Assembly: GCA_050251055.1 (NCBI GenBank)
Contig: JBFWNL010000005.1
Span: 96,001-160,000 of the forward strand
Direction of reading: 5' to 3'
From: Bacteriovoracia bacterium
Lineage (GTDB): Bacteria; Bdellovibrionota; UBA1018; JBFWNL01
Length of the DNA stretch: 64,000 nt
Shown in pieces: positions 26,202 through 31,565 of this stretch. How positions within the stretch are numbered: the stretch's first letter is position 1; each line of letters begins with the position of its first letter. The notes below the pieces were generated by a model, which was not told the DNA's origin, did no database searches, and worked only from the letters and a program-made list of their open reading frames with translations. The translations under genes and the position numbers were made by a program.

Positions 26202-27149
26202 TTGGGGGGAGTCTTGAAGCAGAATCGTAATTTTTTTTGGGTGAGTTTACTGGGCGTCCTGGTCTTGGGCTCCGTAACGCCGGTGGAAGCGAATGTCTCT
26301 TCCGTGCTGCGCCGGTTGGCCGGCCCGATTGGCCGCTTCTTCGTCCAGGAAACGAGTGAGGGGCAAGCGCTTTTGCGCAGCCTGGGAGCGAGCGACGAAC
26401 GGGCCTTGGCCCTCAAGCTCATGGCTCCGGACGCGAACGAGCTTGCGAATAGCTTGGGCGGACGGTTGAGAACGATCGAGCGGGAACTCTTTTACCGCTC
26501 ATTGTTAGATGACGCATTCGACGCCGAATCAGTCCTGAGAACCTTGATCGCTTCCGAACTCAAGCTCGCGGCCCGCGTGCCGGGCCGGATATCCTTTGTC
26601 ATTTCCGAGACGGAAGAAACTTATCGAGCGACGGTACTCGCCGTGGAGGCCAAGTTGAAGGAAACCAAGCAGGCCTCCTCGTTAGTGGGAAAGGTCCTCG
26701 CGCGATCACAGTCCAAGTTCGTGGGGACTGAGCTGGATCTACGCTTCGGGCATTGGCAGAGCGTGAAGGCGGAGATGAATACGCCGGGATTGCGCGCGGG
26801 GCGCGCGGTATTCGAGGACTGTCAGTTAGTCGAGGCGGTTTGGTTGGACGCGCAGGCCGCCCGGGCCGAGATCGTCGGCGGCACGGTGGAAAACATGATT
26901 GCCGACGGCGCTAATTTCCAAAATTCGATTTGGCGTGGGCAGATTCGCATCGATGGCGCGAGCTTCCGCCACGCGGACTTTCGTGGAGCGGACATGCGCG
27001 GTATGGAGGCCGGAACTCTCTTCGACGCCGGCCGCGCCCACGGGCTGATTGGCCGCGTGGATTTCACGGGCGCGATCTTTGACGAGGCGACGAAGTTGCC
27101 CTTTCCGCGGGAACGGGCACTCGAGCTAGGGATGGTGTTTCTTCGGTAG
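26202..27149 (+). CDS. Secreted protein with C-terminal pentapeptide repeats
   Basis: ASFRHADFRGADMRG; terminal cap GAIFDEATKLPF...ALELGM; N-terminal signal-like segment. Confidence 0.75.
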   Translation: MGGVLKQNRNFFWVSLLGVLVLGSVTPVEANVSSVLRRLAGPIGRFFVQETSEGQALLRSLGASDERALALKLMAPDANELANSLGGRLRTIERELFYRSLLDDAFDAESVLRTLIASELKLAARVPGRISFVISETEETYRATVLAVEAKLKETKQASSLVGKVLARSQSKFVGTELDLRFGHWQSVKAEMNTPGLRAGRAVFEDCQLVEAVWLDAQAARAEIVGGTVENMIADGANFQNSIWRGQIRIDGASFRHADFRGADMRGMEAGTLFDAGRAHGLIGRVDFTGAIFDEATKLPFPRERALELGMVFLR

Positions 27150-28280
27150 CTTCACTACGAAGCACGTCTGGGGACAGGCTTCGTCGATGTAGAGCTGGCC
27201 TCGGTGGCGGAGCACGATCTGCCGGGAGATGCTGAGACCTAGCCCGCTGCCCTGGCCGGGGGGTTTGGTGGTGAACAAGGGTTCGAAGATCCGGTGCCGC
27301 ACATTTTCGGGGACCCCCCTTCCGCCATCAGTTACCTTTATGCTCACGGTATCTGAGCTTGAGACGGATTCGATCCGAATCCACCGTCGATCGGCGGGCA
27401 GCCCCGTTACGGCATCGGTTGCGTTGTTCAGTAAATTCACAATCAGCTGAAAGATCTGTACCCCCGAGCATTCGGCTTCGAAATTTTCCAGCGGGGTTGA
27501 GATTTCGAGGCGTGCGTTCGCGTCCCTTAAACGGTGGGCGCAAAAATCCGCGGCTTCTTGGATGACTCGCGACAAATTGGTCTCTGTCACGACGGCGTTT
27601 TCGCCATCAGCCGAAAGCTTCCGCATTCCCTCCACGATCTCATTCGCCTTGCCGGAAGCGGCGTGAAGCTTCTCGATGACTTCGCGTAGTTTTATCAGAT
27701 CGGGAGGCATCGCCTCTAGGCGGCGCTGCAGCTCTTCCACGCGAAGCTGGATCACCGCCAGGGGATTGCGTACCTCGTGAGCGACGTGCATGGCCGCCTC
27801 GCCCGCGTTGACGAACTTGCCTAGCCGGGAGAGGTTTTTCTCGTGCATCTCAAGCCGTTGCTCTAGGCTGAGCAGTCTTCCGGCGAGCTCCGCCAGCGCG
27901 CATAGTCGTGCGCGCTGCACATCGGAGAGGTGCCGAGGTTCGCGATCCATCACGCAGAGCGTGCCGATCGCTTCCCCTCGTGAGTCGAGCACGGGAATCC
28001 CGGCATAAAAGCGCAGATCTGGATGCTTGCGTAAGATCGGAAAGTCGTAAGCCGCCGTATCTACGGAGATGTCGGGTATTTCGTGTAAGGATCGGGTCGA
28101 AAGAGCCTGCTCGCAAAACGCGCGTCCCCGAGGCTGTTCGTCCATTTCGATAGCGTGGGATGAGTAGGCTTTCCAACCCGTCTCGTCCACGCGGTTCAAC
28201 ATGGCATAGGGGGTCTCGCAAAGCTCGGATGCCAGCGTCACCCAGGTTTTTGCCACTGTATCCACGTCGGGGGAGCTCAT
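27126..28280 (-). CDS. Cytoplasmic GAF-domain sensor histidine kinase
   Basis: GAF (AFCEQAL, LRFYAGIPV, IGTLCVMD); H-box HEVRNPL; NLLNNA, DGGRG, FTTK, GSGLGL. Confidence 0.92.
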   Translation of the reverse strand: MSSPDVDTVAKTWVTLASELCETPYAMLNRVDETGWKAYSSHAIEMDEQPRGRAFCEQALSTRSLHEIPDISVDTAAYDFPILRKHPDLRFYAGIPVLDSRGEAIGTLCVMDREPRHLSDVQRARLCALAELAGRLLSLEQRLEMHEKNLSRLGKFVNAGEAAMHVAHEVRNPLAVIQLRVEELQRRLEAMPPDLIKLREVIEKLHAASGKANEIVEGMRKLSADGENAVVTETNLSRVIQEAADFCAHRLRDANARLEISTPLENFEAECSGVQIFQLIVNLLNNATDAVTGLPADRRWIRIESVSSSDTVSIKVTDGGRGVPENVRHRIFEPLFTTKPPGQGSGLGLSISRQIVLRHRGQLYIDEACPQTCFVVKLPKKHHP

Positions 28281-28363
28281 CGTTCCGAAGCTATACGGAC
28301 AAAATCGGTTTCCTAGAAGTAAAGATCCCTTAACTTGAGTTGGAGTTTCTCATGAATGCCGCG

Positions 28364-28375
28364 TGACGCGCGTCA
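28364..28375. promoter_or_regulatory. Perfect 12-bp palindrome TGACGCGCGTCA, possible operator
   Basis: Lies in the divergent intergenic region between the GAF kinase and the GNAT gene. Confidence 0.3.
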
Positions 28376-28384
28376 TGGGGGTGT

Positions 28385-29098
28385 ATGTGGTTAGCTTTAA
28401 TTAACTTGTCGCCATTCCGGTTTGCCCCGACGATTTCCCCACCTCAAATGACAAACGTAGGGTTTGGGTCTTTCTCATTTTCGCATTCAGTGCTGGGAAT
28501 CCAGTGGGAGAAGCACTTTCCCTGGCCCGCCACGCCGAGCATCGAGGTGCGGCCGGGAAGTTTTCCCCGCTTCATGGATTTTCTCCAGACCCATCAGGCC
28601 AGGCTATTCGCGGATTCAGTTTCCGCGGGGGGATTTCTGTCGGAGCCATTCAGTTCCAATAAGCGCCGGTACTACGAGTTAGCTGGCGACTTTCTCGAGT
28701 TCTTTGCGGACGGCCGACCCGTCGGTTATTTCATTGGCAACGTGCAGGACTGGAATACTTACTACTTGAGGTTCTGCGCGATATTGCCGGAGTACCGTGG
28801 ATCCCCCGCGTACGCGCGATTTTTACGACACCTTTTGGAGATCTTGCCGGTTTATGGCGTGGAAAGAGTGGAAGCCCACGTGTCTCCCGCGAACTTTGTA
28901 AACCTTCACATGCTGACGAAGCTGCAGTTCAACGTCTCTGGACAATGCCTCAGCGAGCGCTGGGGAGCGCTATTGCATTTTACGAAGTTCCTGAGCGCTC
29001 GGCATGAAAACGTCTTCCTGAAGCAGTTCTGTAATAGTGATTGGCCTCAGGTGAGGAATCGTGCTGGTTCCGATGATCTTACGCCGATGAGCGTGTGA
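28385..29098 (+). CDS. GNAT-fold protein, first gene of the candidate RiPP cluster
   Basis: GRPVGYF...YYLRFCAILPEYRG...GVERVEAHVSPAN...LTKLQF follows the GNAT pattern; start uncertain (28385 or 28448). Confidence 0.72.
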   Translation: MWLALINLSPFRFAPTISPPQMTNVGFGSFSFSHSVLGIQWEKHFPWPATPSIEVRPGSFPRFMDFLQTHQARLFADSVSAGGFLSEPFSSNKRRYYELAGDFLEFFADGRPVGYFIGNVQDWNTYYLRFCAILPEYRGSPAYARFLRHLLEILPVYGVERVEAHVSPANFVNLHMLTKLQFNVSGQCLSERWGALLHFTKFLSARHENVFLKQFCNSDWPQVRNRAGSDDLTPMSV

Positions 29099-29113
29099 AA
29101 GGGGGATTGGATC

Positions 29114-29143
29114 ATGAAAAAGTTCGCAAAATGGTGCGCCTAA
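29114..29143 (+). CDS. Putative 9-aa RiPP precursor peptide MKKFAKWCA
   Basis: ATG AAA AAG TTC GCA AAA TGG TGC GCC TAA; GGGGGA Shine-Dalgarno at 29101-29106; between the GNAT and HDO genes; followed by a hairpin; below the ORF-track size cut-off. Confidence 0.62.
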   Translation: MKKFAKWCA

Positions 29144-29159
29144 TTTTCTGAACGAGTGT

Positions 29160-29196
29160 CTCCCTCGCGCCATCCCTCACGGGTGGCTCGGGGGAG
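29160..29196 (+). promoter_or_regulatory. Stable stem-loop after the micro-ORF (mRNA stabiliser or partial terminator)
   Basis: CUCCCUCG-C-GCCAUCC (loop CUCAC) GGGUGGC-U-CGGGGGAG gives 15 bp including 2 G:U; followed by GCTTGAATTTTT. Confidence 0.7.
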
Positions 29197-29220
29197 GCTT
29201 GAATTTTTCCTGGAGGTAAT

Positions 29221-29880
29221 GTGATTTCCGAAGTTATCCGTAAGACAATCGAAGACGAAACGAATAATATCCTGGCGGAAAACCGCCTAGTGGCGAAGGT
29301 GAAGAGCGGCCAGCTGGACCCCCGTGATTTTCGCCTCTATCTATATAATTTAAAATACGCTTTCTCCAATACTCCACCCAATCTCGAGCGGGCGGCTCGC
29401 CTCGCCGCTGAGCGAGGACATTCGTTGGTTTCCGAGTTCATGCTGGAAAAGCTAAGCGAAGAGATCGGACACGATCTATGGCCCGAAGCCGATCTGAAGA
29501 AAACCTCCGACCTGGCGAATCCCGAGGGCGAGAATCTGTACGTTACTCAGGCGACGAAAGACCTCATGGATTATACGGCCGCGGTCGTCACCGAAGATCC
29601 CCGCGTTTATCTTTCCTATCTTACCTTCACCGAATACTTTACGGTGCTGGCCGCCCCGCAGTTCCTGCAGGACATGGAAGACAAGTGCGGTATCGCCAAA
29701 GATAAGGTGAGCGCGATTGCCAATCACGAAGAATCCGACCGCGAGCACTCGAAGGAAGATTTCAAGGTTTTCGATCAGCTGGAGATGGACGATCAGTTGC
29801 GCGAACAGCTCGTGACCGCGGTCAAGCGTTCCGCGCGTTTGGTCGGCAACGCCATGAACGCTTGTGTTCAGGCGTCATGA
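29221..29880 (+). CDS. Heme-oxygenase-like diiron oxidase (HDO; CADD/PqqC-like iron-containing redox enzyme)
   Basis: All-helical 219 aa; EEIGHD, TEY and NHEESDREH (H-x3-D-x2-H) metal-ligand pattern; GGAGG RBS before GTG. Confidence 0.8.
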   Translation: MISEVIRKTIEDETNNILAENRLVAKVKSGQLDPRDFRLYLYNLKYAFSNTPPNLERAARLAAERGHSLVSEFMLEKLSEEIGHDLWPEADLKKTSDLANPEGENLYVTQATKDLMDYTAAVVTEDPRVYLSYLTFTEYFTVLAAPQFLQDMEDKCGIAKDKVSAIANHEESDREHSKEDFKVFDQLEMDDQLREQLVTAVKRSARLVGNAMNACVQAS

Positions 29881-30899
29881 GGCCGGAGTGGCCGGCGTTG
29901 CCGGCGGGGTGCGGGCTGCTCGAGGTCTTTGAGTCCGAGTTCGCCCTTGGCGCCACGAGCTACCGCATGGTGGGCATGAGCGCGCCCTCGAGCCGCCATG
30001 GCGAGGTGGTCGGCAGCGCCGTGGGTACGGGACCGGACACATCCCAGCGCGCATATTTCGAGCTCTGGGAACGTGCGGTCCTGTTCGATGCGGACGCGCG
30101 CGCGCAGGAGGACACGGAGCATCCCGGGTTTCCCGGGTTGGCTTTCGATGGAACGCCGCTGGGCCGGTTGGAGCCGACCGCGGTTTTCCCACGTTCCCCG
30201 AGTCCGGAAACTTGGACTTATGCGCGATCTAGCGGAGTAGCGGCGCATGCTGATCTGACCCGGGCGTGCATGTCCGCGGTTTGGGAGTTGATCGAGCGAG
30301 ATCGCGTCTTGCGTGCTTGGTGGGGGCAGTACGTGCCGCGTCCCCTGAGTGGCGTTCCTGCCGGGGCACTGGAGACCGTGAACGAGCGGTTCGCGGCCCG
30401 ATTTTGGGATTTTGGCTGCGGAGTGGTGGGCGTATTCGGACCCGCGCGTCAGTCGGGCAAGCCATTTCTGATGGGATTTGGCGCCGGCGCTAACGTGGCC
30501 GAGGCTTGCGATCACGCCTTGCGGGATGCGATTCAACGGGTGGCTTTTCTCTGGGATGAGCCCGCCGCGGATCCGAATCCACAGGCGGAGATCGAGTTTC
30601 GGCCCTCCGTCGACTTCCACTTGGAGAGCTTCCTGCTTCCGCGCAGCTTTGATCGCGTGCAGGCGTGGCTTGACGGAAAGCATCTAGGTCGCGTACCGGG
30701 GTTGGTCCCGGCGGCGCCGGAGGCCTACCGGCTGGAGAGCTTCGCTTTCGCGGATATTACCCCGGAGGGGAGCCGATCCCACGGTCGCGTCGTGCGCGCG
30801 ATTTCGCCCGTTCTGATTCCGTTGTGCTTTGGACGCGGAAACGCGCGGGTGGCTCCAGGCGGGATGCCCGAAGGGCTATGGATTCATCCCTTCGCCTGA
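29877..30899 (+). CDS. YcaO-like protein, compact and stand-alone
   Basis: RAYFELWER and SSGVAAH...AVWELIERD ATP-binding motifs; GFGAG; C-terminal IHPFA; ATGA overlap with the HDO stop. Confidence 0.85.
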   Translation: MRPEWPALPAGCGLLEVFESEFALGATSYRMVGMSAPSSRHGEVVGSAVGTGPDTSQRAYFELWERAVLFDADARAQEDTEHPGFPGLAFDGTPLGRLEPTAVFPRSPSPETWTYARSSGVAAHADLTRACMSAVWELIERDRVLRAWWGQYVPRPLSGVPAGALETVNERFAARFWDFGCGVVGVFGPARQSGKPFLMGFGAGANVAEACDHALRDAIQRVAFLWDEPAADPNPQAEIEFRPSVDFHLESFLLPRSFDRVQAWLDGKHLGRVPGLVPAAPEAYRLESFAFADITPEGSRSHGRVVRAISPVLIPLCFGRGNARVAPGGMPEGLWIHPFA

Positions 30900-31565
30900 G
30901 AGGGTGTAGCCGTCGGGCGACTGAAACTGAATTTCGACGTCTAACTGGGATAACTTCTTCCGTAAATTGTACAGATGCACGTCGAGTGTTTTTGCGGAAA
31001 CCGTGACGTTCTTCCAAACTTCATCCTGCATTTCCTTGCGGCGGACGATGCGGCCGCGCGCGCGGTGCAGGAGGGAAAAGATTTGAAGCTCTCGTGCGGT
31101 CAATTGCGCCAAAACGTCATCCCCCTTCTTGAGGGCTAGGGCAGTGGGGTCGAAGGTGAATTTGGAATCCAGGTTTCCGCGGGTAGCGGGAGTGAGAAAG
31201 AACCGCTCGATTTTCACGATTAGCTCTGAGCGCGTAAACGGCTTAGTCAGGTAGTCAATGGCGCCTTCCTTGAAGCAGGTCTGCAGAATTTCGATGTTGT
31301 CGCAGGACGACACTACCAGGAAAGGGATCGAATTGGGCAGCAGGGCTTCTTGCTGGGAAAGGAACTCGAAGAAATGCCCGTCCGGAAGGGTAAGATCGGC
31401 GATGAGCAGATGGGGCGTCTCCGCGGCGTTGGCTTTCAGAGCCTTGAAGTTTTCGCTAAATTCTCGCAGGCATTTAAAGATCCGTATTTCATATTTGCTG
31501 CCTAATATCTCTCGATAGACAAAGAGCGCGTCGGTATCATCCTCTACGATCCAGATCTTTTTCAT
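30876..31565 (-). CDS. OmpR/PhoB-family response regulator
   Basis: VEDD, ADLTLPDG, DYLTKPF; winged helix LTARE...TLDVHLYNLRKKL. Confidence 0.92.
   Translation of the reverse strand: MKKIWIVEDDTDALFVYREILGSKYEIRIFKCLREFSENFKALKANAAETPHLLIADLTLPDGHFFEFLSQQEALLPNSIPFLVVSSCDNIEILQTCFKEGAIDYLTKPFTRSELIVKIERFFLTPATRGNLDSKFTFDPTALALKKGDDVLAQLTARELQIFSLLHRARGRIVRRKEMQDEVWKNVTVSAKTLDVHLYNLRKKLSQLDVEIQFQSPDGYTLSGEGMNP

Follow-up and report, generated by a model that had tools for sequence, protein, structure and literature searches.

A 30-nucleotide (nt) open reading frame (ORF) encoding the nonapeptide MKKFAKWCA lies between the gene for a GNAT-family N-acetyltransferase and the gene for a heme-oxygenase-like dimetal oxidase (HDO) in a 64,000-nt stretch of the genome of a Bacteriovoracia bacterium (contig JBFWNL010000005.1, positions 96,001 to 160,000; the whole stretch is hereafter called the window), and the HDO gene is followed in the same operon by a stand-alone YcaO gene. 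Judged by sequence comparison, this ORF is a real gene, the window copy of a conserved family of peptides of 9-12 residues. We consider it probable that the ORF encodes a leaderless or mini-leader precursor of a peptide that is made on the ribosome and then modified post-translationally (RiPP), in which the stand-alone YcaO enzyme would cyclise the penultimate Cys, Ser or Thr to an azoline, while the HDO and the acetyltransferase, both optional, would tailor the product.

The ORF (ATG AAA AAG TTC GCA AAA TGG TGC GCC TAA; the coordinates of all features are collected in Table 1) starts 15 nt after the stop codon of the GNAT gene (TGA, 29096-29098) and is preceded by the Shine-Dalgarno (SD)-like sequence GGGGGA. 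Each of these elements, the 7-nt spacer between GGGGGA and the ATG among them, was found at the position that a preliminary description of this DNA had given, and Cys8, which had been called the sole heterocyclisable residue, is the only Cys, Ser or Thr of the peptide. None of the codons read in frame from the GNAT stop to the ATG (AAG GGG GAT TGG ATC) is a start codon, so the ORF is exactly nine codons long. It is in frame with the GNAT gene, and read-through of the GNAT stop codon would fuse the two. The shared frame looks incidental because most relatives overlap out of frame, the GNAT stop and the ATG of the peptide gene being joined as ATGA in many of them.

We traced the conservation of the short ORF from the enzyme side, by searches with the HDO protein of the window and then with an HDO profile; the family of the window genome has no other representative in the genome collection. 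Matches were found in 10 of 41 relatives, in 16 of the 116 genomes of the order (E <= 1e-10) and in 19 of 401 genomes of the phylum (E <= 1e-20). Every locus where the HDO gene has a YcaO companion or is truncated at a contig end was read in all three frames, which gave 21 loci from 20 genomes, the window included. At every one of these 21 HDO-YcaO loci an ORF of 9-12 codons is situated directly upstream of the HDO gene, at the equivalent position, and in the relatives it is preceded by an SD sequence of the GAAAGGGGG or AAGGAG type at a distance equal to that in the window. The products (for example MKKKFAQISF, MKKKFALLTV, MRKKYAHASM and MKNKKKYAQFCF) follow the pattern M-K/R-K-K-F/Y-A-x-x-[C/S/T]-x. 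Although the enzymes of the relatives are only ~25-35% identical to those of the window, the first six residues of the peptide are nearly invariant. The relatives that carry the locus belong to Bdellovibrionota (Oligoflexia, Bacteriovoracaceae, Oligoflexus). At 11 control loci with an HDO paralogue and without YcaO (the one strong HDO match lacking YcaO, in genome G153, and 10 others), no such short ORF was present (0/11).

The whole 3.77-Mb genome contains 9304 ATG ORFs of 8-13 codons, 1253 of which have an SD-like site, and only two fit the family pattern; of these two, the MKKFAKWCA ORF alone has an SD. With this ORF as the sole SD-preceded pattern match in the genome, no counterpart at the control loci and conservation across relatives, the explanation that it arose by chance was rejected. 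When the window HDO was compared with metagenome contigs, none of the 102 pattern matches was confirmed by tblastn and no locus closely related to that of the window turned up, which leaves the nine-residue KWCA variant untraceable at short evolutionary distance; the tail nearest to it is K-W-T-L, at locus L120.

From the peptide side, two public collections were searched with a degenerate DNA pattern for M-K-K-K-F-A-x-x-[codon starting W-S]-x-TAA. This search returned 72 exact matches, 35 of which adjoin GNAT, HDO or YcaO genes: 30 matches came from genome contigs (596 billion bases), 16 of them beside such a gene (8 already known and 8 new), and 42 came from metagenome contigs, with 19 linked. 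Upstream sequences were read by eye, and an SD was present at the linked matches and absent at the unlinked ones, except for a distal GGGG in L071; by this reading, the unlinked matches look like accidental occurrences inside genes. The ORF set collected for comparison comprises 52 copies from 47 loci (48 distinct DNA sequences, 43 distinct peptides). It was partly ascertained by a pattern that demands Cys, Ser or Thr, and its N-terminal uniformity is partly built in; the 21 loci found through the HDO were read by eye.

Among the 48 distinct ORFs the penultimate residue is Cys in 19, Ser in 11 and Thr in 18, and no other residue occurs; the same rule holds at all 21 HDO-found loci. The residues that flank this nucleophile vary freely in a peptide that is amphipathic as a whole. 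At the last position F, L, V, I, M, T, W, N or A is found, mostly Phe or Leu, with Asn in 1/48, and the residue before the nucleophile is aromatic (F/Y/W) in only 13 of the 48, so that the aromatic residue before Cys that the preliminary description had proposed to look for is not conserved. Trp7 and Ala9 are not features of the family, and the proposal that the HDO processes the C-terminal Ala or Trp is unlikely to describe a conserved step. The codons vary synonymously: Ala is encoded by GCA (27), GCT (10), GCC (6) and GCG (4), Phe and Lys each by both of their codons, and Ser by both codon families (AGC 8, TCA/TCG 3). We read the synonymous codon variation, together with the Cys/Ser/Thr rule, as signs of selection at the protein level. 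The search for a conserved ribosome-binding site and short ORF with synonymous variation in homologous clusters, which had been set as a check, has been run with a positive outcome. Along the YcaO tree the penultimate residue switches repeatedly between Cys, Ser and Thr, one case being a Ser/Thr sister pair at 98/99 support; with good support for 3 of its 21 inner branches, the tree is poorly resolved and too weak to date or order these switches.

The YcaO gene most likely starts at the ATG given in Table 1, which overlaps the HDO stop as ATGA. An alignment of 24 sequences showed invariant E67, E70, E142, E145 and R146, which we take to be the residues of ATP/Mg binding, and a conserved C-terminal H-P-x-x end; the orthologues are 300-367 residues long. 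In a comparison of the YcaO profile with PDB, TruD (6.9e-12), MusD and LynD came first, followed by MJ1094 and McbD. TfuA (PF07812) was found neither in the genome (93.5% complete) nor among the conserved neighbours. Among 1.84 billion representative proteins, the profile matched 466 clusters at E <= 1e-30, nearly all of 300-360 residues. A second, divergent YcaO (354 residues) is encoded in the same genome outside the window (L138; G000:C5:265181-270753). The operon that begins with it further encodes a histidine kinase, a sigma-54-dependent response regulator and a solute-binding protein of the peptide-binding family 5; upstream of it the word TTGCGCA recurs and a promoter-like site (TGGC-N7-TTGC) is present, and no comparable short ORF was seen there.

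The 219-residue HDO has no match in Pfam or NCBIfam. Its profile matched 3dde (3.2e-17) and CADD/CT610 in PDB, and its AlphaFold2 (AF2) model (predicted local distance difference test, pLDDT, 96; predicted TM-score, pTM, 0.92) was placed by Foldseek next to CADD (TMq 0.79-0.81), 3dde (0.82) and UndA (0.73-0.75), and also HmuO and TenA. On the basis of the model, we are confident in assigning to the protein the seven-helix heme-oxygenase-like fold. The residues E80, E81, H84, E138, H169, D173 and H176 do not vary among 24 sequences, and from their spacing we presume them to be metal ligands. A 3-His/3-carboxylate metal-ligand set of HDOs is named in the review PMC13108848. Among the 466 YcaO clusters, the HDO and YcaO are also found as a natural fusion (P0145, 558 residues; three full-length variants on nine contigs), the HDO part of which matches the profile at E 9.8e-44 with the ligand motifs intact, which argues that the two proteins act in one pathway. 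In a second fusion (P0121, 515 residues), the HDO-like domain joined to YcaO has no metal-ligand motifs, which hints that this degenerate domain may have a non-catalytic scaffold role. Elsewhere in the window genome there is a paralogous HDO-like gene (G000:C9:99978-100592; L038/L021), which is linked to neither YcaO nor a short ORF.

For the GNAT protein, the family profile matched YqjY (2.3e-12), RimI, YpeA and N-terminal acetyltransferases in PDB. Its AF2 model (pLDDT 83.6) consists of a single GNAT domain, and Foldseek returned PaiA, Ard1, RimI, SpeG and RimL; the nearest relatives of the protein acetylate N-termini, polyamines or amino-acid-like antibiotics. Its N-terminal region was considered as a separate peptide-binding domain, and this was rejected, since the model is one GNAT domain with the first ~30 residues disordered. 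An all-against-all comparison of 23 loci left five conserved protein families around the peptide gene, namely GNAT, HDO, YcaO, a histidine kinase and a response regulator. As a rule the genes run GNAT, peptide, HDO, YcaO, those of the regulator and kinase being convergent with them, and no other candidate substrate gene is conserved at the loci compared.

From the ORF, its conservation and linkage, and the family and fold assignments of its neighbours, all of which were observed, we infer the following course of translation, chemistry and biological role. The ORF would be translated from its SD, and the hairpin behind it would stabilise or partly terminate the transcript, leaving more message for the peptide than for the enzymes. 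The M-K-K-K-F-A segment would act as a minimal recognition handle, and may also aid initiation on so short an ORF. YcaO, with ATP, would activate the carbonyl of Trp7, and the thiol of Cys8 would close a thiazoline; the penultimate Cys, Ser or Thr is the nucleophile set of azoline-forming YcaO enzymes and thus fits a thiazoline at Cys8. In relatives with Ser or Thr, an oxazoline or methyloxazoline would be formed. The dimetal HDO, where present, would carry out an O2-dependent two-electron oxidation, in the simplest case from azoline to azole, replacing the usual flavin mononucleotide (FMN) dehydrogenase; this role is proposed because no flavin dehydrogenase was found and because the thiovarsolin cluster, described below, offers a precedent. 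The GNAT protein, where present, would acetylate a free amine (the N-terminus, a Lys or a fragment left by processing), either to tailor the product or for self-protection. The convergent membrane histidine kinase and OmpR-type regulator would control the operon or respond to the product.

This proposed pathway resembles that of the cyanobactin and linear azol(in)e-containing peptide (LAP) enzymes TruD, LynD, MusD and McbD in its YcaO glutamate motifs, in its best profile matches to solved structures and in the Cys/Ser/Thr-containing substrate candidate encoded alongside. It differs from them in the 9-12-residue precursor, which has no leader of the usual length, in the size of the enzyme (300-367 residues), and in that neither an E1-like or RiPP recognition element (RRE) partner, fused or separate, nor an FMN (SagB/McbC-type) dehydrogenase is present among the conserved families of the 23 loci. 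Since the partner, the leader and the dehydrogenase that mark a canonical azoline synthetase were not found, the system is filed, on its gene content, as a variant of YcaO-dependent RiPP biosynthesis outside the canonical azoline-synthetase systems (thiazole/oxazole-modified microcins, TOMM, and LAP). Very short precursors missed by gene callers are known from microcin C (MccA, 7 residues) and the biarylitides (BytA, 5 residues), as here; in the microcin C system, a hairpin follows the peptide gene mccA, and a GNAT-type immunity domain occurs. Unlike in those systems, here no ThiF-like MccB or P450 is conserved, the C-terminus is hydrophobic rather than Asn, and the modifier is a YcaO.

The missing partner, leader and dehydrogenase weigh against the precursor reading, and so do several further observations. 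The NCBIfam cyclodehydratase model TIGR03604 scores the YcaO at 48.7 bits, against a cut-off of 219.25, and neither an exporter nor a protease is conserved in the 23 loci compared. The HDO gene is missing in four loci (L072, L116, L124 and L080, all with Cys peptides), where the peptide gene stands directly before YcaO, and the GNAT gene is missing in at least eight, so the roles of the two are not essential. By their distribution, GNAT and HDO are best regarded as tailoring or accessory enzymes and not as core ones. The acetyl-CoA loop of the window GNAT reads R-G-S-P, against the family consensus Q/R-G-x-G. The window peptide itself is an outlier of its family, with nine residues, one Lys fewer and the sole C-terminal Ala. 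In one metagenome-assembled genome (MAG), G425, YcaO is on a separate contig: in this 7.2-Mb MAG, labelled Polyangiaceae, GNAT, peptide and HDO genes are on one contig (L052) and YcaO is alone on another, of 6.6 kb (L139). Either the cluster of G425 is truly split or its layout comes from faulty assembly or binning, which makes this MAG no more than a possible case of the system beyond Bdellovibrionota. A search of sequencing runs found no RNA run with the window DNA; the stretch occurs in two DNA runs of one landfill-metagenome study, from which it may derive. The window hairpin is not a textbook intrinsic terminator and was not called by a consensus promoter/terminator scan of 27900-31200, which gave 0 promoters and 4 terminator-like sites (4.0 expected), none of them at the hairpin. 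Finally, divergence of the membrane half of the kinase does not follow that of the peptide tail (rho 0.05, p 0.53, 17 loci), in what is a weak test at this divergence.

The kinase has its hydrophobic segments between residues 13 and 247, forming a membrane half of ~250 residues without a large external domain, and orthologues of 536-597 residues could be aligned in 17 loci. The kinase and/or the regulator adjoin YcaO at 23 of 26 assessable loci, as counted from the locus map, and are missing in L068, L077 and L079. This two-component system is a conserved part of the locus that the preliminary description had passed over, as it had the hairpin behind the ORF and the YcaO start. This kinase-regulator pair suggests regulated, possibly self-induced production. 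The agr (AgrD/B/C/A) and lantibiotic NisRK systems are peptide autoinduction circuits that resemble this locus in keeping a peptide gene next to genes for a modifying enzyme, a membrane histidine kinase and a response regulator. The present locus differs from them in having no AgrB-type protein or exporter, an OmpR-type regulator and no covariation of sensor and peptide. It is conceivable but rather unlikely that peptide, YcaO, kinase and regulator form an agr-like autoinduction cassette of these predatory-lineage bacteria, in which the signal would be an azol(in)e decapeptide, its precursor consisting of little besides core and having six residues as a handle where a leader would be expected, and a diiron HDO would take the place of the flavin dehydrogenase.

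The short peptide could also be a precursor for another chemistry, in which YcaO would form an amidine or activate the C-terminal amide for attack by another nucleophile, the HDO would catalyse oxidative decarboxylation or desaturation at the C-terminus, and the product would be a small N-acetylated fragment, as in the thiovarsolins or mycofactocin. UndA is indeed among the fold matches of the HDO, the relatives of the GNAT protein are N-alpha and small-amine acetyltransferases, and HDOs catalyse decarboxylation, desaturation and N-oxygenation according to the accessible text of PMC13108848. In the thiovarsolin cluster (VarA, the YcaO VarY, the TfuA protein VarT, and VarO), as described in the accessible text of PMC6511847, a heme-oxygenase-like protein beside YcaO is the apparent dehydrogenase, and the products are N-acetylated tripeptides. 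No other RiPP cluster was found in which a YcaO and a heme-oxygenase-like protein act together, as proposed here; the thiovarsolins are TfuA-dependent thioamides from a long repeat precursor, whereas in the present case no TfuA was found in the genome, the peptide is one 9-12-mer alone and an acetyltransferase gene belongs to the cluster. The nearest solved relatives of the window YcaO form azolines, the Cys/Ser/Thr invariance is most simply explained by a cyclodehydration nucleophile, and no protease is conserved; on these grounds we consider another chemistry improbable. A further candidate relationship was to the tiarins and trifolitoxin, for which the accessible part of 10.64898/2025.12.02.691738 describes clusters some of which use YcaO to make a thiazoline, and a GNAT by which the processed product is acetylated and the producer protected. 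The tiarins are defined there by TfxB/TfxC and by precursors of 23-65 residues with a conserved Gln; membership, in the terms of that text, was rejected, because TfxB/TfxC, a precursor of 23-65 residues and the conserved Gln were not found.

Alternatively, the peptide might act unmodified, as a cationic-hydrophobic micro-protein, for example on the membrane kinase, with YcaO, HDO and GNAT using another substrate. The amphipathic character of the peptide, the polytopic kinase and regulator at 23 of the 26 assessable loci, and the missing leader and RRE would all be in keeping with such a role. It does not account for the tandem copies described below, nor for a Cys, Ser or Thr at a single fixed position, which matches YcaO chemistry; moreover, the peptide gene stays linked to YcaO in loci without HDO or GNAT (L072, L116, L124, L080), and no gene for an alternative substrate is conserved. 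We therefore regard an unmodified micro-protein as very improbable.

The arrangement of the peptide genes and the hairpin behind them bears on a regulatory function of the ORF. The hairpin of the window has a minimum free energy of -32.7 kcal/mol for the 65 nt 3' of the stop codon (z -3.9). An equivalent hairpin with z < -2 relative to shuffled sequence is present in 19 of 21 loci (median -3.51), and across the 21 loci it starts 1-22 nt past the ORF stop, often with a T run. In the window, a GGAGG site is located between the T run and the GTG start of the HDO gene at 29221. Peptide genes occur in tandem in L064 (two copies), L110 and L122 (three) and L068 (five), and the hairpin is found solely behind the final copy; in L079 the peptide gene converges on YcaO rather than preceding it. 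Both the tandem copies and the convergent copy of L079 fit poorly with a cis-acting leader. In the arrays of L068 (4790-5306), L110 (2214-2407) and L064 (2121-2234), the peptide genes are identical, have an SD each and are situated upstream of HDO-YcaO; the hosts are Oligoflexus-type and other MAGs, and the L068 array is partly masked with N. Lys/Arg-x-Lys/Arg motifs can stall ribosomes. In the least probable of the readings, HDO-YcaO would be under an attenuator, coupled to translation and made up of the ORF and hairpin, with ribosomes stalling, for instance, at the Lys-rich start, and the peptide itself would not be a substrate: although the ORF is immediately upstream of HDO-YcaO, its N-terminal K-K-K is conserved and a stable hairpin with frequent T run follows within 1-22 nt, an attenuator gives no account of the invariant penultimate Cys/Ser/Thr amid free variation, of the 2-5 tandem copies or of the convergent ORF in L079, and the gap between GNAT and HDO has no Rfam match at E <= 1.

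Table 1. Features of the peptide locus and its surroundings (positions in the window)
Feature	Position	Strand	Basis or remark
TTAACT element, ~50 nt upstream of GNAT start	28330..28335	+	word enrichment, weak
GNAT-family N-acetyltransferase, 237 residues, first operon gene	28385..29098	+	Pfam PF00583 at 3.4e-8
SD-like GGGGGA	29101..29106	+	7-nt spacer (29107-29113) before ATG
9-codon ORF MKKFAKWCA, candidate precursor peptide	29114..29143	+	family conservation, SD, synonymous codons
GC-rich 41-nt hairpin after short ORF, then T5 at 29204-29208	29158..29198	+	folding energy
HDO, heme-oxygenase-like dimetal oxidase, 219 residues	29221..29880	+	profile, fold, residue set
Stand-alone YcaO, 340 residues from ATG 29877 (ORF list: TTG 29862)	29877..30899	+	Pfam PF02624 at 9.1e-13, above cut-off
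OmpR-type response regulator	30876..31565	-	Pfam Response_reg + Trans_reg_C; convergent, overlaps YcaO 3' end
Histidine kinase, 561 residues	31562..33247	-	HATPase_c; polytopic membrane N-terminal half

TTAACT occurs in 11 of 24 operon-upstream regions, against a mean of 2.3 and a maximum of 7 in 300 mononucleotide shuffles, a count to be read with the enrichment of other AT-rich words. This is a weak hint that the TTAACT words could be binding sites of the OmpR-type regulator. TTAACT and CTTAAC words are found upstream of the first gene of the operon, sometimes as direct repeats ~10-11 nt apart (L015, L019, L089, L097). Upstream of the GNAT gene, the window encodes a pentapeptide-repeat protein and a GAF histidine kinase (26202-28280), which are not conserved in the other loci.

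In the literature searched, which excluded subscription journals and supplements, no work joining YcaO, HDO and a very short precursor was found, and the string MKKKFA occurred only in a Bacillus signal-peptide paper. The RiPPER-based surveys consulted, among them that of PMC6511847, cover Actinobacteria only, so far as their accessible text indicates. Going by these searches and by the sequences compared, the short ORF is probably the source of a new family of tiny modified peptides, and it shows the cost of ignoring ORFs of <30 codons. A leader peptide and a recognition partner are usually regarded as requirements of YcaO enzymes; if the precursor reading is true, the 9-12-residue substrate with its six-residue handle would be a minimal model, easy to synthesise, for studying substrate finding by a stand-alone YcaO, and a first function would be gained for a type of HDO to which the family libraries are blind. 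With a two-component system linked to the locus, a role in signalling, or as a self-regulated antibiotic, is open to direct test. If the autoinduction reading were true, one locus would present the smallest substrate of a YcaO together with a new class of RiPP and a new chemistry of peptide signalling. For the predator phylum, the secondary metabolism of which is little known, the precursor reading would mean one more RiPP family, its diverse members numbering several hundred at the least (466 clusters of this YcaO type).

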